Virus record (IMG/VR): IMGVR_UViG_3300009157_000025
Span: 1-47,354 of that record
Reading direction: 5' to 3' (one strand)
DNA from: a virus
Taxonomy: Duplodnaviria > Caudoviricetes
DNA length: 47,354 nucleotides
The translations under genes were made by a program, and so were the position numbers. Positions 1-47,354 of this stretch are shown here, piece after piece. The notes under the pieces were generated by a model. That model worked only from the letters and a program-made list of their open reading frames with translations. It ran no database searches and was not told the origin of the DNA. Numbering within the stretch: position 1 is the first letter of the stretch; each line of letters begins with the position of its first letter.

Positions 1-82
1 ACAAAAGAAAAAAAAAAGGGAGAACACAGAGAAGGGGCGGGAGAGAGGGTCGTCTTTTTGTTTTTTTTTTTTTTTTTTTTTT
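1..82. repeat. Low-quality terminal sequence with poly(dT) tract; degraded copy of 47031-47100 (circular junction)
   Basis: 18-60 (gggagaacac...gagagagggtcgtctttttg) loosely matches 47031-47070 (gggtgacacc...gagaaaggatagtattg); both are followed by a T run. Confidence 0.6.
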
Positions 83-130
83 ATATATACTATTTATCTT
101 ACTACTGCCACTGTCACCTATTCAGGACAC

Positions 131-3190: not shown

Positions 3191-5282
3191 AAGTGACGCT
3201 ATCAAACTTCTAAGAAGTACGTTAGATGCTCATAATCTGGGAGATTGGGGTATCCGTCTTAATCAGAATGCAGCCGCGCCTTTTCTTGCACTGTGCTCAC
3301 ATAAGGATAAGGTTATCATCCTTAATGCACATCATGTAGACCAGCATCCTCTGGTTGAACTTACTAATACTATTAAGCATGAGGTTGCTCATGCTATTGT
3401 TGGTCCGGGCAATGGTCATAACGAAACATGGGCTAATATGGCTCGTGCTATTGGTTGTGATAACGTTGCTCCATGCGCTAACTTTGGACTAAATCCACAA
3501 GTTATTGACGCTATTCGTTCAGGCGCGGAAGTTGAGATTATTGTTAATGAGACTACTGTAAGAAACTACGACTATCGTATCACTCAGCTTAAGGATAAGT
3601 GCGAAACGTGCGGTAAGGTAGCCGTATTTGACCGTGATATGAATGTTCCCTCTAGGGATGAAATTAATCCAGATAAGAAGATTACATTCTTCAAATGTGG
3701 CCACTTTAGAATAACTGAATTGCCGAAGGCTACGCCATTCCATCTGTTAGCATGGGGTGGTAATAAAGATTGTAAACATGAGTGGTTTAAAACTACTTGT
3801 GTCACTTGTGGTGCATACCGTGCATATCCATTCCAAGTTGAGGGAATGAAGTTTGCCGAACGTGCATTAATGAGTGGTAAGGGAGTTGGTATATTCGATG
3901 ATATGGGATTGGGTAAAACAATCCAAGCATTGGGTGTACTAAAGTATCTTCCTAATACGGGTAAGATTTGTTTTGGAGTTAAGTCAGCAATTAAATTCCA
4001 GTGGTTCAAGACTGCATTAGCAGTTATGGGAGATGAGTTTCTTCCTCAGATTATCAATTCGTCGAATGATATTCTGATTCCCAATATCAAAGTCTACATC
4101 ATTAGCTACGATATGCTAGTGTTCAAGACTAAAAAGCTTAAAAGCGGTAAGACTGTTCATCAAGGATTTGATGTAAATAAATTAATCGCGGCCGGGGTTA
4201 AGACTCTAGTCCTAGATGAATGTCAGCAATTAAAAAATCCTGATGCTAGTCGTACTCAGGAAATTAGGAAGCTTGCTAAGCACTGTAAAGTAATTGCACT
4301 TAGTGGTACACCGTGGAAGAATAACGGTAGCGAATTCTTCTCAGTGCTGAATATGATTGATCCTATCAGGTTCAATTCATACGCGGGATTCACTAAGAAT
4401 TGGGTTAAGAGTTACTTTGATAGTAATGGTAAGCCTAAACTCGGTGGTATTAAGGATGTTCCACGCTTCCGTGAGTTTACTAAGGATTTCCTGATTAGAC
4501 GTGAGCGTGCAACTGTATTGCCTGAGTTGCCGCTGATTAATAGACAGGCATTGTATGTTAAGCTAGAGGAAGTTGAACAGCAAACATACGATGATAGTAC
4601 GAGTAACTTCGTTAAGTGGTGGAATGAGAAAGTAATCTCAGGTGAAGATACTCATGCAGCAACATCCTTACAGCTTCTGGCACAGCTTACTCATCTCCGG
4701 CACATTTCGGGATTGGCTAAAATACCTGCTACACTTGAGTTTGTGGAGCAATTCACTGAACAGGCGGACGTTAAGAAACTATTGATTGGTGTCCATCATA
4801 TTGACGTTGGACAGACACTATACGATGAGTTGAAGAAAACATATCCTGACTATCTCGTACTGAAGATTACCGGCAGTATGAATAGCATGGAGAAATTCGA
4901 AGCACAGGAACAGTTCAATAATACAGAGAAGGTATTGTGCGTAGCAAGTACTCTCGCCGCTGGAGAGGGTATGAACCTACAGACTGCTAATGCTGTAGTA
5001 TTGCATGAGAGACAGTGGAATCCAGCTAACGAACAGCAATTTGAAGATAGAATCGTCCGTATCGGACAGACTTCAAATCATGTAACGGCTACATATGTAT
5101 TAGGTGAAGGGACTGTAGATGATTTGTTCCATGGAATTGTAGAAGGTAAACGTATTCACTTCCACAGTTCGATGAATGAGAATGAATTGTCTAATCCATC
5201 GTGGATTGAATCAGACTTGATGCACGATTTGGCTAATGCAATTGTGGCTAAATTCAATAAGCAGAATAGGAAGGCTGCCTAA
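3183..5282 (+). CDS. SprT-like zinc metalloprotease fused to SNF2-family helicase/translocase
   Basis: N-terminal IKHEVAHA...GHNETW; Zn ribbons; DDMGLGKT, VLDECQ, LSGTP, GEGMNLQ, WNP...Q.EDRIVRIGQ. Confidence 0.9.
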   Translation: MDRSDAIKLLRSTLDAHNLGDWGIRLNQNAAAPFLALCSHKDKVIILNAHHVDQHPLVELTNTIKHEVAHAIVGPGNGHNETWANMARAIGCDNVAPCANFGLNPQVIDAIRSGAEVEIIVNETTVRNYDYRITQLKDKCETCGKVAVFDRDMNVPSRDEINPDKKITFFKCGHFRITELPKATPFHLLAWGGNKDCKHEWFKTTCVTCGAYRAYPFQVEGMKFAERALMSGKGVGIFDDMGLGKTIQALGVLKYLPNTGKICFGVKSAIKFQWFKTALAVMGDEFLPQIINSSNDILIPNIKVYIISYDMLVFKTKKLKSGKTVHQGFDVNKLIAAGVKTLVLDECQQLKNPDASRTQEIRKLAKHCKVIALSGTPWKNNGSEFFSVLNMIDPIRFNSYAGFTKNWVKSYFDSNGKPKLGGIKDVPRFREFTKDFLIRRERATVLPELPLINRQALYVKLEEVEQQTYDDSTSNFVKWWNEKVISGEDTHAATSLQLLAQLTHLRHISGLAKIPATLEFVEQFTEQADVKKLLIGVHHIDVGQTLYDELKKTYPDYLVLKITGSMNSMEKFEAQEQFNNTEKVLCVASTLAAGEGMNLQTANAVVLHERQWNPANEQQFEDRIVRIGQTSNHVTATYVLGEGTVDDLFHGIVEGKRIHFHSSMNENELSNPSWIESDLMHDLANAIVAKFNKQNRKAA

Positions 5283-8920: not shown

Positions 8921-9196
8921 ATGGCATTAGATGACGTTAAATATCCCTTTGGTGATAAGAGGATTGAAGGTAAGGTAATCGTAGTTAATAAAAAAGGATT
9001 CGGATTCATCAGTACGAAAGATGTTCCGTTTACCCGTGTTTATTTCCACTGGACTAATCTGGTTCCTCAAACAATTAACTTTGCAGAGATTAAGAGGAAT
9101 GATCCAGTAGACTTCATTCTTGAAAAGAAGATTGATGGTACTTATAAAGCTATCAAGATTGATATTCTCGAAAGAGAGAATGTAAAAAGTGAGTGA
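8921..9196 (+). CDS. cold-shock domain protein
   Basis: RNP1 KGFGFI and RNP2 VYFHW motifs. Confidence 0.85.
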   Translation: MALDDVKYPFGDKRIEGKVIVVNKKGFGFISTKDVPFTRVYFHWTNLVPQTINFAEIKRNDPVDFILEKKIDGTYKAIKIDILERENVKSE

Positions 9197-10913
9197 TCAT
9201 TATGTCCCAGGAATGGGATTCAATGGTGCTAAGATTATGTTATTGGGGGAATCTCCGTCCCTAAATGATGTAAAGCGTGGTCGCCCTATGTCCGATACTA
9301 GGGACTTAGATGACCTACTTAAATCAGCGGGAATTATTAAAGGTGATTGCTGGTTAAGTACTGTATTCAAATATCCAGTCCCTCCTAGTCCAACTAAAAA
9401 GAAGATTCCAGCATTCGTACGTGCGGAACAGGCTGGATTAGATATCAGGCAATCTCTATTTGAACTTCAGAATGAGATTAATGATGTTAAGCCCAACGTT
9501 ATTATCGGATTAGGTGGAACAGCCTTTTGGGCATTAACAGGTATCCGTCCTAAGAGTAAGAAAAAGAAGAGTGACTCAGATAAAATAGCATTACCCCAAG
9601 GTGGTATCACAGATTATCGTGGTTCCATTATGATGGGTATGGGGCGTAAGGTTGTATGCACTTATAATCCCGCGCAGTTGAATTGGAACGCGCCTGATAT
9701 TGAGTTTATGGGTCACTGGAATAGACAGATTATTCTAGCTGACCTACGTAGGGGCAGAATGGAATCTGCCACTGCTAATTTTGATTTACCCGTTCGTACT
9801 ATTGAAATCTGCCGTTCACTAGAGGACATTAGACGATTCCGTGGACAGTACATCAATAAAGTAGCTGTAGCCGTAGATATTGAAGCAGGTGGTCATTTCC
9901 TTCCTGCATGTATTGGTTTTGCGTTTACTAGAACTCACGCAATGGTAGTTCCATTGTGGAATATTAATGAGTTTAAGCACATCTCTGATATTGAAATGTG
10001 TATGATCTGGAAAGAAGTAGCTGAGATTCTTTATGAAAAAGAAATCGTGGGCCAGAACTTCAATTACGATCGCGACAAAATTCGAAGAATCGGATTCCGT
10101 ATACGCAAACTCCGATCAGATATCATGCTTAAGTGCCACGCGATCAATCCAGAACTTCCTAAATCGCTCTCTTTCAATGCCTCTATATATACGCGTGAAC
10201 CGTTCTACAAAAACGAAGGAATGTACCACGGTACATTTAACGATTTACTTATCGGATGTGGCAGAGATTGTTGCGTTACGAAAGAAATTGATGAAGCTAC
10301 AGAGACCGAGCTGGACGAAATTGGTCAGCACAATTATTTCTACAATTTCATGATGAAGTGGCCTGAACTCTATCTTAGGATGGAGAATACAGGTCTTAAG
10401 ATTGATTACACTAAGAGAGATCAGCTACTTGAGAAGTATGTAGCCTGGAGTGAAAGACTTCAGTATGAAATGTTCCAGTTAACCGGAGATGATGTTAATG
10501 TTAACTCTCCCAAACAAGTCTCGATTCTCTTATTCGAAGTACTTAAATGTCCACGTCGTAACGGTACGTCTGAGGAAGAACTCACGTCTTTACTTAACTT
10601 ACAATCCTTCACCGATCCGACTAAACGTGCCATTGTTGAGAAAATTCTTGAGAAAAGACGGGTGGATAAATCTATTGGAACTTACCTTATGGCGCTTCCG
10701 GATTACGATGGTCGTATGAAAACTACATACTTCCCTTGTCTGGATACGGGTAGAAGTAAGACGGGTCAACAGGAACCTCCTATCAGACCAGATATTGAGA
10801 TTAGAGATTACGAAGGTAAACTTAAACGAAAGAATTTAGGTACAGCATTCCAGACTATGACCAAACATGGTGATATTGGTCAGGATATTAGGAGTATGTA
10901 TGTGCCCGGTTAA
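9189..10913 (+). CDS. polA: family A DNA polymerase, N-terminal part: UDG-like domain, 3'-5' exonuclease, thumb
   Basis: GESP..ND...GRP (UDG family 4-like), TYNPA; ExoI VDIE, ExoII GQNFNYD; NVNSPKQV; DTGR; ends IRSMYVPG just before motif A. Confidence 0.9.
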   Translation: MSDHYVPGMGFNGAKIMLLGESPSLNDVKRGRPMSDTRDLDDLLKSAGIIKGDCWLSTVFKYPVPPSPTKKKIPAFVRAEQAGLDIRQSLFELQNEINDVKPNVIIGLGGTAFWALTGIRPKSKKKKSDSDKIALPQGGITDYRGSIMMGMGRKVVCTYNPAQLNWNAPDIEFMGHWNRQIILADLRRGRMESATANFDLPVRTIEICRSLEDIRRFRGQYINKVAVAVDIEAGGHFLPACIGFAFTRTHAMVVPLWNINEFKHISDIEMCMIWKEVAEILYEKEIVGQNFNYDRDKIRRIGFRIRKLRSDIMLKCHAINPELPKSLSFNASIYTREPFYKNEGMYHGTFNDLLIGCGRDCCVTKEIDEATETELDEIGQHNYFYNFMMKWPELYLRMENTGLKIDYTKRDQLLEKYVAWSERLQYEMFQLTGDDVNVNSPKQVSILLFEVLKCPRRNGTSEEELTSLLNLQSFTDPTKRAIVEKILEKRRVDKSIGTYLMALPDYDGRMKTTYFPCLDTGRSKTGQQEPPIRPDIEIRDYEGKLKRKNLGTAFQTMTKHGDIGQDIRSMYVPG

Positions 10914-11410: not shown

Positions 11411-11644
11411 GTGATTATGAATACTTGTGTAGCCGATGATGCTAATATTGTTAATATTCAGGGTATCCGTTATGTTACATGGGGTGAAGCCACTTCACAG
11501 TATGAACGTGGGTTAAGCCAGCCGTGGTATGTTACTGTAACATATAAGGGTAATCATCAAACATTCAAGTATCGTACTGAAGATCAGGCACGTGCATTCT
11601 TCAGAATGATTCGTGATGCAATGACGGCCAAAAAGAATGGCTGA
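11411..11644 (+). CDS. hypothetical protein inside the polA gap
   Basis: ORF track; AAGGTG SD; stop overlaps start of the polA C-terminal part. Confidence 0.65.
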   Translation: MIMNTCVADDANIVNIQGIRYVTWGEATSQYERGLSQPWYVTVTYKGNHQTFKYRTEDQARAFFRMIRDAMTAKKNG

Positions 11645-12563
11645 TATTTTTGTACAGGCGGATAGTAGTCAGGCAGAAGCGCGTGTTGTATTCCTTCTGG
11701 CCAATGATGAACAAGCATTAAAGGATATAGATGAACACGACTACCATGCTCTCACTGCTTCTTGGTTTTTCGGTGGGACTGAATTTGATTATTCTAAAAA
11801 AGTATTGGGATATGAACACCCAATTAGATTTGCTGGAAAAACTCTTCGGCACGCAGGCCACTTGGGAGCGGGAAAAGGTCGCGCTACTGTTGAGCTTAAC
11901 ACGCAGGCGCGCAAATATAAAATTCCAATAACGATTACTCCGGGGGAGTCTGATAGAGCACTTAAAATCTTTCATGCTAAACAGCCCCGTATTCAAGGGG
12001 TATTCCAGAATGGAATCGTCGAAGCATTAAAGAAGAATCGTACACTTATTGCCGGTATGCCATTCGGATTCGACTGTGAGACGGGCGGCCGTCGTACATT
12101 TTTTGAGAGGTTTGGAGATGACCTATTCCGAATGGCTTTTAGTTATATACCCCAGCGTAGTGTATCTGATAATACTAAAGCTGCTGGTATTCGAATCCTT
12201 AGAATCATCGAAGATATACAAATTATTATGGAAAGTCATGATGCTCTCCTTTTTTGCTTTGATGACAAATATCTTGATAGTTATTGCCCTGTTATTAAAA
12301 GGGAAATGGAAAGGCCTATAAGTTTTGCTAACTGTAGTCTCCCACGTCGTATGTTGAAGATACCTTGTGATATTGAAATCGGTTACAATTATCAAGACTT
12401 GAATAAATATAAGCAAGTTAAAGCATTAGAGACTCCATTAGAACTTGAGGTAGCTAAGGATACTTCATTCCTAGTAGAGTCAATTTATGGAGATACACAC
12501 CTTGAAAAGAGAATTTCGGAGAGTGCAGAATGGAAGAAAGAGCGGAACTTTCTTATCGACTAG
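11637..12563 (+). CDS. polA: family A DNA polymerase, C-terminal part (motifs A, B, C)
   Basis: ADSSQAEARV (A), RFAGKTLRHAGHLG (B), SYIPQ, ESHDALLF (C), IPCDIEIGYN. Confidence 0.9.
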   Translation: MADIFVQADSSQAEARVVFLLANDEQALKDIDEHDYHALTASWFFGGTEFDYSKKVLGYEHPIRFAGKTLRHAGHLGAGKGRATVELNTQARKYKIPITITPGESDRALKIFHAKQPRIQGVFQNGIVEALKKNRTLIAGMPFGFDCETGGRRTFFERFGDDLFRMAFSYIPQRSVSDNTKAAGIRILRIIEDIQIIMESHDALLFCFDDKYLDSYCPVIKREMERPISFANCSLPRRMLKIPCDIEIGYNYQDLNKYKQVKALETPLELEVAKDTSFLVESIYGDTHLEKRISESAEWKKERNFLID

Positions 12564-18190: not shown

Positions 18191-21100
18191 TTATCTCCCG
18201 TAAGTCTGAACACCACCACCACCGAATGCGGACGCCGACGAGAATAACCCCTGTAGTAACGTAGGATCTTCTTTCCAGATTTCGTATAGATCCTGTGCTA
18301 CTATGGGGGTAATTTTATTCACAGCCTCATCCTTGAAGCTAAACGGTTTTCCATCATAATCCTTCCCTTCCATCCAACTCCAGATAAACGCAGGTACGGG
18401 TGCAAGTTTATTCTTCATGAAGTTTCCGAATACACTAGCACGAGTAGGCATACCGAACTTACCCGAAGTTAGATCATGTGTTTTACCCACTCCACCTGCT
18501 TGTTTAGGAGAAGTAGTAGACTGACCAGTTAATAAACGCGCGGCCGCGACTAAGAACTGTTGATGTCCACCGAATGGATCAATACGGGTATTACCGAATC
18601 TAATCTTACCGAAGTCTGAATTGGTAGCATCCTCAGTATTTACAGTAGCTCCAATACCCTTAGCTAACTGACCAATCAGCAATCCTGCACTAGCCAATCC
18701 TAACATAGAACGTAACTGTTCTCTACGGACTACAGGTGGCATCTCCGCATAGCCGAACGGATTAAACGTACGTGTGTACATCTGTAGACGGCTAGTTGTT
18801 AAACGAGGGCTGAAGAAGATTTGTGCTAATGGCTTAGCCGCAGGTTCAAATGCACCTAAGTTACCACGTCCAGTAGCAATATTGATAAAGTCAGCAATCT
18901 TCTTAGCTTCACCCAGATTGTTCCGTACACCTGCCTCATTAACTAAGTTTTTGAACGTGTCCGCTCTTAACTTGTTTAAATAAGCTGTGTATGCACGTAC
19001 CGAGGGTTTGACGAACCATTTAGTACCAGCAAATTCTTCCGCGAACTTACTTCTGAATAACTCCTCACGATGATCCAGTGTATCCGTTAAAGAGAGTCCA
19101 GCTTCATTAGCAAATGACTTACCCTTCTTACCCGTATCACGGAACATACCTGATGGGTCATTCTTAATAGAGTCCATTACGGTAGCATAACCCTTATCTG
19201 AACCCATAGCCTCAAACATAGGCTTCCAACTAGTCCACCATTCTTTACGTGTAATTAGTGGTAATCCCTGTCTACCGGGAGCACTAATATCAGCCGAGGT
19301 TAATACTGTACGCTGGAAATTCAATGCCTTTTCAAGCAAGTTTTCCTTTTCATCTCGCGTTACAGTAGTATCCTCTTTGATCTTTTTAAGCATATCCCCA
19401 GCAGCCATTACCTGAGAATCTACTTTACCCTTACGCTGGATATCCTTAACTACTGCATCAGGTACAGGGATATCACTAGTCTTACCTTTAACTTTAGGAC
19501 TCCACTTAATAGGCTTGTTAAAGGTGTTACTTAAGTTTTCTCCTGTAGGATTATTTGGTCTTACGGGAGAAGTTCGCTCTCCATTTGATCCAACATCGCC
19601 GAAAACGCTTTCGCCTCCGAAGGGTTTAACTTCTGAATTGACGCCCGTTCCGCTAAGAAGGTTTTTTGCAGTTCCTTGGCGCCCCTTTCTCGTAGTATAG
19701 AAGAGTAATGCGTTCTGAACGTCTTTAGAATATCCACTATCGGATTTCGATTGGAAGAGGCCATTTAATTCATCTACTCCTTTATGCCATGCTTCACTAC
19801 CTGATTTAGCATAGACTTCTGCGGTTGCTCTTAACCATGATAATCCATGTGCAGCATCCCTCTGTCCCATAGATGAAGCTGCAACTTCATTCATGTATTT
19901 CTGGAAAAATGATCCAATTTCAGGATCAGTAGTATCTACATTTGACCAATCAATTTCGCTGAATTCATCACCATAAGTTTGAGTATGGCCTACCTCATGC
20001 CAAGTGGTAGACATATTCTCACGAGCAGCTTCCCTAGGATCAGATTTACGAATAATAAATTCAAAGGGATTAATTAAAATTGTAGCCTTACCAGCAGAAT
20101 CAGGATTAGGAATCCAGACACCATGATGGCCGGGATCTAATGAAATACCAACCTTTTCAATTCTATCCCCCCATGCAGGATTTACTGCATTTAGGGCATC
20201 ATTAACTAAAGAATCAACTTTCTCTGAGAAATCAAAGATAAATCGATTACTTGATAATGCACTAAGCTCCTTTGGATTTAACAGATTATCTGGATCAAAA
20301 ATAACAGTAGGACGGTGCCTAGTTTTACCCTTAAAAGTCAGAGGTTCGGCAATAGGGTGCATGTTAGTATACATGTCCCTGAGTGATTGCCGCTGTTTAT
20401 CAAGCGCGCCTGACTTAATATTATCTTCAATCCATTTATCAATAGCCGCTTTAACGTGATCAGCCACCTGTTCACGATTAAGAGTGTAAGGATAAAATTC
20501 CTCTCCTTCGGCTACAGTTGCACGAACGTTAGCTTTAATATTCTCAGGAACACCTTTTAACGCACCATGTTGTGAGTAACTATCTCCTTCAGAGAATTGA
20601 TACATTCCATTATTTAATGTATCTATCATATACTGCTGTACCCTAGCATCGGGGTCAGGAGTTTCATAATGGAAATCAATTTCCGCTCCAGGAATTTTTA
20701 ATGTATCCTGAATGGGTAATTCTGGAGAAGGATCAATGTTAGTATGATCATCCAATCCAATCTTATTTGGTAAATCAACTCCCTTATTAAAGAAATTATC
20801 TAATTGCTCAGGAGTTTTAGATTGCCAAAGATGTCTAATTTGAAGAGGAGATTTACTACCTACTGAATTGTTTCCAATTGCTGTTGCAAAAGTTTCTGCA
20901 ACTCCTATATTGTTATTCTTTTTATTATAATAAATAGTAGCCTTAAATCCTGTAGGGGTATCTCTATTAACTACCTCACGTTTTAATGGAACTCCAAAAT
21001 CTTGATTCTTTAAATCTTTTGGAGTGCCTTCAAACGTGTATTTAACTTTCTTTCCATTTTCAATTACAACAGATTCATACCTGGAATATCTACCACCAAG

Positions 21101-23707
21101 CATAGGACTAGCTTTAGCAAAGCCAAATCCACCCGATGCAGCAGCTTCATCCATTTTACCACTTTTACCAACATCAGTAAAAACAGTATAAATCTGTTCC
21201 GGAGTCATTCCTCTACCATAATCACGAATGGTTAAGGATGGTGCATCTTCTCCCGTAACGGGATCTTTAGTGGTTCTATCTAATACAACTCTAAGAGGCT
21301 CAGTCGATCCACTAATCTTATGTTCGTCAATAGAATTCTGTAATAGCTCTTTAACAGCAACTACTTCAGGCTTTTTACCATATAAACTATTACCTAAGAT
21401 ATCTAATACACGAGGCTCAGCACCACCCATAGCCACATTTTCAGGCTTCTTTTTGGCCCTCATCTCCATGGGGAATACATTAGGTTCATCTCCAAACACC
21501 GGTCGCTGTGTACTACCACTACCAGCAGATTTCATTCCTTTATTGCCTGTTTTCTGAATAACTTCTAATTCACCCGAACGAATTTTAGCTGTAATTTCTT
21601 CAGGATTATTGATATTATCCAACCAGAAAGTTTCGCCATCAGGAGTAGCAACTTCAAGGGTATCCCCGTGCATTACTTCTTCTGCATCTGCCTTAGGATA
21701 TCTAATAGGCTGCTGTTCAGTATCAAACTTCTCATAACGAGGATCAGATAAAATTTCTGTTAATTTATGAGCTTCTTTCAGTTGTTCAGGAGATAAATCC
21801 CCTTGATTCTGTAAGTCCCAAAACTTATTTCTTACTTTATTATACTGTTCCTGGGTAAGAGGTTTTCCTGTATAACCACGCTGATCAGGATCAGGTTCCC
21901 ATCCAATCTGACCATTATCATCGATAACAGAAGGATTATCAGATAACTGATCTTTCTCAAATGCGCGAGCCTTATCAGCATCTAAAGAAGCCTTAAAGCG
22001 TGCAAGTAATTCTGGTGGTACGTTCGCATCATAAACAATCGCCTGGATGCTTTCTTTTCCATTAGCCAAATCAGCCGTAGCTCTGTGATGTCCCCCTGCG
22101 AGAATATTCTCATCTCCAATTCGTATAACCACAGGTGCTTGATCATCCATTCTACCCTTAGCTGAATCCGGTACTTCAGTTAATCGTGGACGGTCGCCTT
22201 TTCCCTGATAATCACTAACAGTATTGGGATCAACGGTACTCTGAGTACCCTTTAATCCCTGTAGGGGGATATCCTCTAAACGGGGGTTAGTATAATCCAC
22301 CTGTTTATTACGAAGCATTTCATCCATTACAGCTTCGTCTGCTACAGGGAATGGACTCGGTTCTTTACCCATTTCAGGGTCATTAGTAGTATCTAATTTC
22401 TTAGGGAATACTGATCTTCCCTGATCATCGTACTGATTATTCTTATAACGTTCTCTTTCATCAGCTGCTATTTTATTAGCAATTTCCTGCTGTCTAGTTA
22501 ATGGAGGTTCATCCTTAACACGGGGCTGTCTACCAAATCCACGATTCTCGAATACAACAGGTTCAGCCGGTTTATCAGGTTGTAATACATCACGTACAGG
22601 TAATTCAGATGGTCTATTAGGCTGGAAATCTGCAATTGACCTACCAGATTCATCAAATACACCATTAGGAGGTAATGGATCACCTCTACGTGGAATATTT
22701 AATGGTCCCGGACGTGCAGGTTCAGCATTAACATCAAATGAATTATCCGGTAAAAATTCATTCGGCATCCTAACCTGTGGTAGATCAGGCTTCTGATTAA
22801 AATCAAAACTACGCTGCCCAGTGGGTGCAGGAATATTCTCACCCGGAGGATTAACATCAGCTAAGAATGGCTGCTTGTATTCACCTGTCCATCCGGCGGG
22901 TACATCAGGTCCATGTACAGGGCCAGATAATGATTCAGCTAAATGATTAACATGCGGACTATTACGCAGTCCGAGCGCACCAACCGCAGCACCGCCTACA
23001 GCATTAAGCTTATCTTCCCAAGCCATATTGGGATCAGCTAATGCCCTACCACCTTCAATAACCTGTGGAATACCTGCCGCACGTTCAATATTACGTAACG
23101 TATTTGCAGCACGGAATTTACCAATCTGCTTAATACCTTCTACGGCCGCGTCCGTCGTAGGAGCACCTTCAGCCGCAAATGTTCGTGCGGCAGCTCTAGC
23201 ACCTGATTTAGCTAATGCTGTACCTGCAGAGCCTGCACCAATAGTACCTAAACTTAACGGACTAGTCATACCATCCGTTACGTGGCCTAACGATTCAATA
23301 TATGCAGATGCTACGCTACGGAGGCCGTAATCAGCTTCCCTGTTAGGATTAATCCATTCACTAGCTTTTTTAGCTAATTTAGAAGCAGACGGCAAGTCTG
23401 GAAATACATCAGTTAATGGGGTATTAACCGCATTCCAAATACTCTTAAGTCCGAAGGCATTAGCCTCATTATCAGGAATATCCTCACCCGCCGGCCGTCT
23501 ATTAGGATCACCTGTATATTTAGGCTGTTCAGGCTTTGTAGGTGCCCTTAAATCTACATTCTCAAGTGGCTCGAATCCCTGTAGATTTAATTGAGTTTCA
23601 GGCTCAAATCCTTCAGGATAACCATACTTACTAACTGAAGGAAGATCAGCGTTAGTCCACTTAGCTCTATGATTAGAAGGACGTGCAGGCTCAGGAAACT
23701 GTGGCAT
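18191..23707 (-). CDS. 1838-aa polyvalent internal virion/ejection protein: ParB-like, GHKL ATPase and zincin domains
   Basis: PVVI..GD..ILAGGHHRATA; KELLQNSIDE, RDYGRGM, GKSGK..GGFGFA; WHEVGH...AHG..W; last large gene of the structural operon. Confidence 0.8.
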   Translation of the reverse strand: MPQFPEPARPSNHRAKWTNADLPSVSKYGYPEGFEPETQLNLQGFEPLENVDLRAPTKPEQPKYTGDPNRRPAGEDIPDNEANAFGLKSIWNAVNTPLTDVFPDLPSASKLAKKASEWINPNREADYGLRSVASAYIESLGHVTDGMTSPLSLGTIGAGSAGTALAKSGARAAARTFAAEGAPTTDAAVEGIKQIGKFRAANTLRNIERAAGIPQVIEGGRALADPNMAWEDKLNAVGGAAVGALGLRNSPHVNHLAESLSGPVHGPDVPAGWTGEYKQPFLADVNPPGENIPAPTGQRSFDFNQKPDLPQVRMPNEFLPDNSFDVNAEPARPGPLNIPRRGDPLPPNGVFDESGRSIADFQPNRPSELPVRDVLQPDKPAEPVVFENRGFGRQPRVKDEPPLTRQQEIANKIAADERERYKNNQYDDQGRSVFPKKLDTTNDPEMGKEPSPFPVADEAVMDEMLRNKQVDYTNPRLEDIPLQGLKGTQSTVDPNTVSDYQGKGDRPRLTEVPDSAKGRMDDQAPVVIRIGDENILAGGHHRATADLANGKESIQAIVYDANVPPELLARFKASLDADKARAFEKDQLSDNPSVIDDNGQIGWEPDPDQRGYTGKPLTQEQYNKVRNKFWDLQNQGDLSPEQLKEAHKLTEILSDPRYEKFDTEQQPIRYPKADAEEVMHGDTLEVATPDGETFWLDNINNPEEITAKIRSGELEVIQKTGNKGMKSAGSGSTQRPVFGDEPNVFPMEMRAKKKPENVAMGGAEPRVLDILGNSLYGKKPEVVAVKELLQNSIDEHKISGSTEPLRVVLDRTTKDPVTGEDAPSLTIRDYGRGMTPEQIYTVFTDVGKSGKMDEAAASGGFGFAKASPMLGGRYSRYESVVIENGKKVKYTFEGTPKDLKNQDFGVPLKREVVNRDTPTGFKATIYYNKKNNNIGVAETFATAIGNNSVGSKSPLQIRHLWQSKTPEQLDNFFNKGVDLPNKIGLDDHTNIDPSPELPIQDTLKIPGAEIDFHYETPDPDARVQQYMIDTLNNGMYQFSEGDSYSQHGALKGVPENIKANVRATVAEGEEFYPYTLNREQVADHVKAAIDKWIEDNIKSGALDKQRQSLRDMYTNMHPIAEPLTFKGKTRHRPTVIFDPDNLLNPKELSALSSNRFIFDFSEKVDSLVNDALNAVNPAWGDRIEKVGISLDPGHHGVWIPNPDSAGKATILINPFEFIIRKSDPREAARENMSTTWHEVGHTQTYGDEFSEIDWSNVDTTDPEIGSFFQKYMNEVAASSMGQRDAAHGLSWLRATAEVYAKSGSEAWHKGVDELNGLFQSKSDSGYSKDVQNALLFYTTRKGRQGTAKNLLSGTGVNSEVKPFGGESVFGDVGSNGERTSPVRPNNPTGENLSNTFNKPIKWSPKVKGKTSDIPVPDAVVKDIQRKGKVDSQVMAAGDMLKKIKEDTTVTRDEKENLLEKALNFQRTVLTSADISAPGRQGLPLITRKEWWTSWKPMFEAMGSDKGYATVMDSIKNDPSGMFRDTGKKGKSFANEAGLSLTDTLDHREELFRSKFAEEFAGTKWFVKPSVRAYTAYLNKLRADTFKNLVNEAGVRNNLGEAKKIADFINIATGRGNLGAFEPAAKPLAQIFFSPRLTTSRLQMYTRTFNPFGYAEMPPVVRREQLRSMLGLASAGLLIGQLAKGIGATVNTEDATNSDFGKIRFGNTRIDPFGGHQQFLVAAARLLTGQSTTSPKQAGGVGKTHDLTSGKFGMPTRASVFGNFMKNKLAPVPAFIWSWMEGKDYDGKPFSFKDEAVNKITPIVAQDLYEIWKEDPTLLQGLFSSASAFGGGGVQTYGR

Positions 23708-43703: not shown

Positions 43704-44279
43704 TTATTCTAGGGCTTCAACTGTTTCAAAGGAGGATTCTTTAGCGAAACCAGGATTGTACATTACAATCGAAGGTCCATTAATATTAACACCTGTATCT
43801 TTACGTTCAGACGCAGGTTCCATATCCTTAATGATACCACTCATAGTCTTAGCTACTAACGCCAGGTCTGTTAACTTGGCATCCATGAGTTTATCTTCCG
43901 TAATATTCTCAAACGTCTTATTGAGAATCTTAGTAGCCTTCTTAGTAATCCTATCCTTGGATTGTCTAAGAGCGGAAGCTAATTCTTTATTGGGCTTGTC
44001 GTAGGTGCTTGTGGAAGTAGCACCATTAGAATATGCAGAAACTGAGGATGGACTTACATCGAACATCTTAGCGAATTGCGTAGCACTACGGCGACCGTTT
44101 TGTACTTTATCATCCGCTATCAATGCACGTAATGAGTCAGGTACATTATTGTCACCTTCACTACGGCCAGGTCTAGGAATATCTATAACCTGTGCGGGTT
44201 TTAATTCAGGTACAGGGGATCGTTCTAAACGCTCTACCTCTGTATTAAATTCTTCATCTGATACAATTCCAATAGGCAT
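43704..44279 (-). CDS. probable terminase small subunit (HTH)
   Basis: ATQFAKMFDVSPSSVSAY HTH; first gene of the late operon. Confidence 0.6.
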   Translation of the reverse strand: MPIGIVSDEEFNTEVERLERSPVPELKPAQVIDIPRPGRSEGDNNVPDSLRALIADDKVQNGRRSATQFAKMFDVSPSSVSAYSNGATSTSTYDKPNKELASALRQSKDRITKKATKILNKTFENITEDKLMDAKLTDLALVAKTMSGIIKDMEPASERKDTGVNINGPSIVMYNPGFAKESSFETVEALE

Positions 44280-44300: not shown

Positions 44301-44329
44301 AGCTTATCATACTTACTTCGGGGTGTCAA
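44301..44329 (-). promoter_or_regulatory. sigma70-type promoter for the morphogenesis operon
   Basis: Minus strand TTGACA-17 nt-(TGA)TAAGCT. Confidence 0.75.
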
Positions 44330-44387
44330 CTGTCCCCTTTTTGACACTCCCCGTTAAGTCCTTCGGAATGAATGACTTGGGGAACCG

Positions 44388-44416
44388 TTGACAAACGGAT
44401 CAGTGTGTGTTACAAT
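44388..44416 (+). promoter_or_regulatory. sigma70-type promoter, divergent from the late promoter
   Basis: TTGACA-17 nt-(TGT)TACAAT. Confidence 0.85.
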
Positions 44417-44452: not shown

Positions 44453-44611
44453 ATGAGTAAGTGGCAGATGATTAAATGTTTCTTCGGATTCCACACACCT
44501 GAAGTAGTTGGATATCCCTGTACTACAAATACAGAAGGGTGGTTAAGATATGTTGAATGTGAATATTGTGGTGTCTATTTAAGGGAGCATACAGAAGATG
44601 AACATAAGTGA
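44453..44611 (+). CDS. 52-aa Cys/His protein
   Basis: Translated by hand: KCFFGFH...CEYCG; AAGGAG SD. Confidence 0.6.
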   Translation: MSKWQMIKCFFGFHTPEVVGYPCTTNTEGWLRYVECEYCGVYLREHTEDEHK

Positions 44612-44930
44612 TATCATTTATGAATGCCAGGTTAAACCTAACACTTATGGATTAATCACCAGGAGAACATGGAAGGAATTAAAAACTGTATTTGATACAC
44701 ATGTTAAACTGTCAGGCGCGTCTAGGATTAGTAAGGTAGAATCAGTCTATCACTATGCCAATGGAAGTAAGATATACTTCAGTACAATACATTGCCTTAG
44801 GAATATAGAGAGACATCTGGGAATGTATTATGACTTTATGGATATAGATTATATTATGCCTAAACATGGAATGGAACTGCTAAAGAGGATTAGACCAGAT
44901 GACATCCGCAAAATACTCAAGGATCTGTAA
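44598..44930 (+). CDS. stand-alone fragment resembling a terminase ATPase subdomain
   Basis: LITRRTWKEL...Y.NGSKIYF...G..YDF..ID; no Walker A; GGGAG SD. Confidence 0.65.
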   Translation: MNISDIIYECQVKPNTYGLITRRTWKELKTVFDTHVKLSGASRISKVESVYHYANGSKIYFSTIHCLRNIERHLGMYYDFMDIDYIMPKHGMELLKRIRPDDIRKILKDL

Positions 44931-45042
44931 GGAATGTGGAACTTCAATCAGCACCAATCGCAAAAACCAACGTTTTTGCACGGAGAAGTGTAGGAATAAA
45001 CATTGGGTAAAGGAGAATCCGAGGATTAAACGTGAAGTATAA
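44899..45042 (+). CDS. 47-aa zinc-finger protein
   Basis: Translated by hand: CKECG...FCTEKCR; GAGGA SD. Confidence 0.6.
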   Translation: MTSAKYSRICKECGTSISTNRKNQRFCTEKCRNKHWVKENPRIKREV

Positions 45043-45259
45043 GTATGGTATATGTAAGGAGTGTAAAACAAAGAGACGAATCTTTTATTTAGGATCTAGA
45101 GGGGACTATCGTAAATATAGATGTTCAAAGGGTCATACCTGGGAAGTGGAGATATTAGGAACTGAAAAGATAGCAGGAATAATGCAGGAGGTTATGCTCA
45201 AACATATAAAGAACATATTTGAAAGGGATGATACTTTCTATAAAAATCTAAAAAAGTAA
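45032..45259 (+). CDS. zinc-ribbon protein ending in a copy of the capsid N-terminal motif
   Basis: CKEC...CSKGH; C-terminus FERDDTFYKNLKK; GAGGA SD. Confidence 0.7.
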   Translation: MKYKYGICKECKTKRRIFYLGSRGDYRKYRCSKGHTWEVEILGTEKIAGIMQEVMLKHIKNIFERDDTFYKNLKK

Positions 45260-45495
45260 CTAAGTATGGGACCATAATATGGGACCCAATTCTAAATATT
45301 TTAGAGAGGCACACGATTGATGCCACCCCCAGCGAACCTTTTTTAAGCATGCTTCATTTTAGGGGGTATACCCTACCCACTACCTAGTAAAACTAACAGG
45401 TCAAAAACTAGTAGTTTTGACAGCTATACAAGCGTAGGATACTCCTGTATGATGTATCCATAAGTTAGTTAACACGTTATTAGTGAGGTGCCGAT

Positions 45496-45609
45496 ATGAA
45501 GCTTAGCAAGACTGTTAGCACGTTCGAGATGATGCTGATGTATATCAGTGAAGGGTATCCCGAAATGGCGCGTATCTACACTATCAAATTGGTGCGCTCA
45601 TGCCGGTAA
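45496..45609 (+). CDS. 37-aa hypothetical protein
   Basis: Translated by hand; GAGGTG SD. Confidence 0.5.
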   Translation: MKLSKTVSTFEMMLMYISEGYPEMARIYTIKLVRSCR

Positions 45610-45827: not shown

Positions 45828-45873
45828 TTGACATCTGCCCCCGACTATGATACACTTCTTAAGTCGGGGGCAG
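45828..45873 (+). promoter_or_regulatory. sigma70-type promoter whose -10 lies in the loop of a perfect 12-bp inverted repeat
   Basis: TTGACA 45828-45833, 17 nt, TACACT 45851-45856; CTGCCCCCGACT/AGTCGGGGGCAG. Confidence 0.75.
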
Positions 45874-45955
45874 TTGAGAGTGACCGACAAACGAGCGAGA
45901 ATGACCTGTTTCGGGGACATCGGAAACGACGGTAATTTACTAATTAGGAGAGTGT

Positions 45956-46963: not shown

Positions 46964-47354
<391 letters not shown>

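Follow-up and report, generated by a model that had tools for sequence, protein, structure and literature searches.

The viral DNA analysed here (the window; 47,354 nucleotides, IMG/VR record IMGVR_UViG_3300009157_000025) has the appearance of a near-complete tailed phage genome of about 47 kb. Our subject is one small open reading frame (ORF) in it, P0001, which encodes 110 amino acids (aa) and which we call the mini-terminase. It is the second gene in a cassette made up of four short ORFs that overlap (52, 110, 47 and 75 aa), located between a divergent putative small terminase gene (terS) and a non-coding element conserved with a syntenic locus, L066 (Table 1). A preliminary description had read the ORF, from its letters alone, as an intact, catalytically dead piece of the ATPase of the large terminase subunit (TerL), standing by itself on the strand opposite to terL and served by its own Shine-Dalgarno sequence. 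Its reading of the gene holds: the ORF runs without a break from ATG to TAA, terL lies on the other strand, a Shine-Dalgarno-like AAGGGAG precedes the start codon, and AAGGA precedes the corresponding start of the L066 homologue.

Homology to the TerL ATPase

Profile comparisons confirmed that, as judged from sequence, the ORF is a homologue of the TerL ATPase core. It belongs to a family of only six clusters among 5.8 billion proteins, 99-110 aa long and 42-65% identical to P0001. The terminase large subunit family phrog_979 matched all six members, with E values of 1.1e-3 for P0001, 2.3e-6 for P0009, 3e-7 for P0010 and, at best, 1.7e-10 in a set of four members. When four members were aligned with 15 TerLs of the own family using hhalign (probability 88.6, E 2.7e-6), query positions 13-87 fell on TerL 53-141 and the three motif parallels listed in the preliminary description came out in register. 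Against a profile of 15 TerLs the six members scored 33-59 bits (P0001, 32.9), and 200 shuffles of each reached at most 6.9 (2.8 for P0001); because this profile was built partly from TerLs found together with the mini-terminase family, it is phrog_979 that provides the unbiased test. Likeness to the phage's own TerL, also claimed earlier, stood up with profiles but not in a direct BLASTP comparison, where the match was not significant (E 0.40), and the ORF is no close copy of its own terL. Among the 20 of 93 tblastn matches of P0005 in cultured phages that were listed, those with an annotation were terminases, and no Escherichia phage was tallied when four members were compared by tblastn with 50,697 phage records.

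The AlphaFold model of the mini-terminase (predicted local distance difference test, pLDDT, 81.7) has the ASCE/terminase ATPase fold, and in the structural comparison that the preliminary description had called for, the five best matches among 48,161 solved chains were terminases. The retained strands are presumably neighbours that together form one side of the sheet, and this would account for folding alone; the model predicts an independently folding alpha/beta unit. What is shared with the TerL ATPase (phrog_979 type; PF03237, Terminase_6N), in sequence and fold alike, begins at the helix that follows Walker A, ends with the helix that follows Walker B and includes the RRT motif, a hairpin, the NGS-IYF strand and the Walker B strand; the solved relatives are D6E (5oe8), P74-26 (4zni), T4 gp17 (2o0h), PhiV-1 (in 8dgc) and HK97 (6z6d).

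Unlike a functional TerL, the mini-terminase has no Q motif (the adenine-binding element), no Walker A P-loop, no catalytic Glu, no motif III, no lid and no nuclease, and it is a separate gene in a phage that also carries a complete terL. The terminase profile match begins at position 47-51 of 215, past the P-loop in all six members, in agreement with the earlier claim that Walker A is missing; on neither flank did the three + strand frames show a relic of the P-loop or of any other part of terL. At the other end the protein stops shortly after the R-x-R that precedes motif III, and motif III, the lid and the RNase H-like nuclease all lie outside its 110 aa. On HK97 TerL the model covers residues 63-179, on which K60 marks Walker A, E154 marks Walker B and T186 is the putative sensor (PMC9410871). 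On P74-26 TerL it covers residues 46-170, a span that includes the DNA-binding patch (R101, R102, R104 and R128) as well as R139, the arginine finger that acts in trans, and leaves out the P-loop R39 and the lid residues 228-245 (PMC5389665).

The replacement of the Walker B DE by DY, noted earlier, was also found here, with D84-Y85 of P0001 aligning without a gap. Across the six members the canonical position of the catalytic Glu is occupied by Y, S, S, Q, S and S, and the Asp is retained in five. The register is slightly uncertain because an invariant Asp (D82) stands two residues earlier and is followed by Glu in P0010; P0001 has I83 there, and thus no Glu in either register. Since both the P-loop and the catalytic Glu are missing, established P-loop chemistry would make binding and hydrolysis of ATP very unlikely.

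Selection, ancestry and distribution

The L066 homologue is 65% identical in protein sequence, and its start, its stop, the downstream zinc-finger gene and the non-coding element are all shared. The ratio of non-synonymous to synonymous change (dN/dS) between the two genes, a measurement that the preliminary description had proposed, was 0.33 by the Nei-Gojobori method (bootstrap 0.18-0.56; one gene pair), indicating purifying selection and not the decay of a pseudogene. Constraint was strongest over codons 1-62 (0.17) and weaker after them (dN 0.39 and dS 0.60 over codons 63-99). None of the six members carries a stop or frameshift, and the family shares its start and has a similar end over deep divergence.

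These genes appear to form an old, separate lineage, and P0001 no recent copy or fragment of its own terL. In a 28-row tree the six members make up one group (support 100/99) on a long stem (1.12 changes per column), outside the group of own TerLs (100/100); a tree constraining the mini-terminases with their own TerLs was not rejected (p-AU 0.25). The family profile scored the own TerL at 7.5 bits and TerLs of unrelated phages at up to 38 bits, a comparison in which the higher-scoring TerLs had been found together with the family and the own TerL has a 13-aa insert in the matched region.

The mini-terminase is an accessory gene with a patchy distribution, since neither the regions flanking 64 related terL loci nor 20 whole related records, 10 of which are 90% complete or more, yielded a stand-alone copy to the family profile; the four matches in those records lay within TerL itself. 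The cassette slot is variable, because locus L005 has a comparable four-gene cassette on the opposite strand in the same slot (3864-4652, -). This cassette includes a phrog_2308 zinc finger; another of its ORFs, of 83 aa, resembles a degenerate terminase core by eye only. Two further loci drew our attention. In L032 a 100-aa ORF (212-514, +) lies directly upstream of a terS-like gene; after an RRxF signal-like start it resembles the N-terminal part of TerL with Walker A (own-family profile, E 0.011; broad profile, E 0.11), approximately the portion missing from the mini-terminase. In L067 (5805-8785) the Walker A region of terL is interrupted by a stretch, probably an intron, with a 214-aa ORF whose start we take to be GIY-YIG-like; terL is uninterrupted in L068, a close relative.

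Small stand-alone proteins of the same fold may form a large class even though the sequence family is small, to judge from structural likeness alone. Clusters without a common Pfam family account for 29 of the 30 Atlas feature matches; the three clusters described among the matches listed have 106-115 aa and a score of 0.93, and one 115-aa cluster has PF03237 in 27% of its members. In BFVD, 10 of the 50 rows of structure matches are proteins of 95-132 aa, most of them matched over much of their length, and include uncharacterised proteins of Arthrobacter phage MargaretKali (A0A345KN49, 108 aa; template modelling score, TM, 0.63/0.64) and Gordonia phage Hedwig (A0A1C9EHN3, 122 aa).

A possible decoy and its alternatives

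The mini-terminase is a real, selected and undescribed variant among terminase look-alikes, and our best guess, by analogy, is that it would work like the group that includes vs.8 and the Ksap proteins. Like T4 vs.8, it stands alone, has sequence homology to the TerL ATPase and occurs in a phage with a normal TerL, but Walker A and Walker B are both retained in vs.8, which is toxic together with EcAvs2 (PMC13601566), whereas the mini-terminase has neither motif and comes from another TerL type. Ksap1 and Ksap2 are described as proven Avs2 activators with no detected sequence homology to TerL (PMC11564622, PMC13601566), and it is by these descriptions that the mini-terminase, with its clear TerL homology, is set apart from them. 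It stands between the two, traceable by sequence like vs.8 and stripped like Ksap. What small terminase look-alikes do is posed as an open question in PMC13601566; our literature searches, which did not extend to the supplementary tables of vs.8 and Ksap homologues, found no description of such mini-terminase genes or of terminase decoys.

The preliminary description had suggested an anti-Avs terminase decoy or a protein that inhibits packaging by rival phages. We tentatively favor the possibility that the mini-terminase is an early decoy that occupies a terminase-sensing receptor (Avs1-3, Upx or similar) but leaves it short of full activation. Early expression is likely, because a match to the consensus of a host-type sigma-70 promoter (TTGACA-17-TACAAT with an extended -10 TG) precedes the cassette; the + strand has four TG-extended TTGACA-17 sites (131, 2912, 44388 and 45828), all within + strand gene blocks. 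Made early, the protein would bind the host sensor and would fail to switch it on because the ATP site, the strands of Walker A and motif III and the nuclease, parts engaged by known sensors, are missing. The real TerL, made late, would thereby pass unnoticed. Consistent with this idea, the mini-terminase keeps the segment that holds R154 and W179, the EcAvs2 contacts named in PhiV-1 TerL (PMC13601566). According to the same source, the ATP site helps to seal the Avs2 interface, Avs3 binds the nuclease and Upx is predicted to thread strands; the mini-terminase has neither that ATP site nor the nuclease and probably lacks some of the threaded strands.

Several observations weigh against a decoy. 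Ksap1, Ksap2 and vs.8 each activate Avs2 and do not block it, and the ATPase domain alone, as well as most catalytic-aspartate mutants, still activates Upx (PMC11564622, PMC13601566); partial interfaces are likewise described as sufficient for Avs2 activation. A terminase mimic may thus be a liability, since known look-alikes and the ATPase domain alone trigger sensors. In addition, a decoy for the phage's own TerL might be expected to resemble that TerL, yet it is other TerLs that the family profile scores higher. The anti-Avs proteins DruSM1 ORF55 (a DNA ligase) and ORF83 (a DprA/Smf-like Rossmann protein) are not terminase mimics (10.1101/2025.06.06.658234), and the estimate of selection comes from a single gene pair.

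In a broader version of the decoy proposal, which we consider unlikely, the family would be one of a widespread, undescribed class of half-ATPase decoys of 95-130 aa that act as competitive antagonists of Avs1-3 and Upx. Phages would have repeatedly trimmed the TerL ATPase to the half gripped by sensors and discarded the half that activation requires; Ksap1 and Ksap2 would then belong to this class as further-diverged decoys, to which some Avs2 proteins have come to respond. Should the class prove as wide as the Atlas and BFVD matches suggest, a function would be provided for many small phage genes now called 'hypothetical', some of them in cultured phages.

Terminase is a main pattern detected by bacterial NLR-like sensors, and a family whose descent from TerL can be traced in sequence, and which is exactly trimmed and without ATP-binding and catalytic motifs, lets one ask whether stripped versions of a phage's own hallmark proteins serve it as immune decoys. 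It also offers a natural truncation able to separate sensor binding from sensor activation.

Alternatively, the TerL-derived half-domain may have been repurposed for another host or phage macromolecule, in host takeover, against a different defence system or on DNA through its old DNA-gripping face. Any detection by sensors would then make it a trigger only by accident, as is the case for Ksap1 and Ksap2. The long stem (100/99) and family-specific invariant residues, which include Y8, E9, N15, W25, F32, K46, D82 and I86, suggest a new function, and Ksap1 itself is described as dispensable and without a known role. Action on DNA would suit both the basic patch within the span kept from P74-26 TerL and the invariance of R22, K29, K46 and R97, but the isoelectric point varies from 5.9 to 9.3 over the six members, so basic character is not conserved; P74-26 TerL, moreover, grips DNA tightly only when ATP-bound (PMC5389665), and a partner is not evident. 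On balance we regard repurposing as only slightly less likely than a decoy.

The mini-terminase could also serve as a packaging brake, delaying the phage's own packaging or blocking a co-infecting phage, if it docked on TerL via its core face and, having no lid, capped the ring, or if it soaked up small terminase. The retention of the trans finger position together with the loss of the lid, a K or R three residues before a conserved G in six of six members and the adjoining putative terS all fit a brake, and a foreign target would accord with a likeness that is closer to the TerLs of other phages than to the phage's own. We nevertheless think this quite unlikely: the gene is carried by the early strand and is no part of the late operon; with half of the sheet gone, the geometry of a ring may not be preserved; and 10 near-complete relatives whose TerL is of the same family do not have the gene, so it is not a core packaging part. 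Least probable by far would be a piece of terL picked up by recombination that is neutral or in decay, even though the small, patchy family and the weakly constrained C-terminal third point that way, given that the dN/dS interval excludes 1, that the boundaries of the gene persist without lesions, that the flanks hold no relics and that the structure model is confident. A terL pseudogene is likewise disfavoured by the position of the family outside the own-TerL clade, although a sister relationship was not rejected.

The cassette and the surrounding genome

Table 1. Position and character of the mini-terminase, its cassette and the neighbouring terminase genes in the window
Feature	Position	Strand	Remarks
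Large terminase terL, 550 aa	41515-43167	-	Both Walker motifs intact (Walker B, DE); phrog_979 E 3.7e-35, PF03237 E 1e-6
Putative small terminase	43704-44279	-	Named from position alone; weak helix-turn-helix matches; divergent from cassette
Sigma-70-type promoter (candidate)	44388-44416	+	Consensus match only (11/12); precedes cassette
52-aa Cys/His-rich ORF	44453-44611	+	First cassette gene; overlaps mini-terminase start
Shine-Dalgarno-like AAGGGAG	44581-44587	+	Ends 10 nt before mini-terminase ATG
Mini-terminase P0001, 110 aa	44598-44930	+	TerL ATPase half-domain, from helix after Walker A to R-x-R before motif III
47-aa zinc-finger-like ORF	44899-45042	+	phrog_2308 E 2.9e-7; overlaps mini-terminase end; also follows L066 homologue
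75-aa Cys-containing ORF	45032-45259	+	Last cassette gene; missing from L066
Non-coding element	45312-45425		Conserved with L066; closes cassette

PHROG and Pfam searches gave no family for the 52-aa ORF that opens the cassette. Homologues of the putative terS gave 33 matches across 44 regions upstream of terL. Beyond the cassette, a 37-38 aa ORF (45493-45609) is conserved with L066; this ORF and the non-coding element are kept there though the adjoining genes differ, and the pair could be a packaging or replication site. At 45828-45876 a sigma-70-type promoter is overlapped by a 15-bp inverted repeat, and similar TTGACA/TGTCAA hairpins are found at 44311-44359, possibly as a shared operator.

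The + strand carries genes for a helicase, an exonuclease, a Sak4-like protein, a DNA polymerase and a primase, and the - strand carries terL and the major head and tail genes. Cultured phages yielded no close relative, the best TerL identity being about 30%. DNA identical over parts of the region is present in four further sequencing runs, from freshwater sediment (X2) and soil (X3-X5). The DNA polymerase, family-A-like (phrog_17), is split over two ORFs (9189-10913 and 11637-12563) with about 720 bases and several tiny ORFs between them. The late strand ends with a gene for an 1838-aa protein (18191-23707, -) that has an internal RIIA-type profile match (residues ~760-870, E 4e-12). Both ends of the window (1-100 and 46980-47354) carry long poly-T/A and TGAG repeats, which are possibly assembly artefacts.
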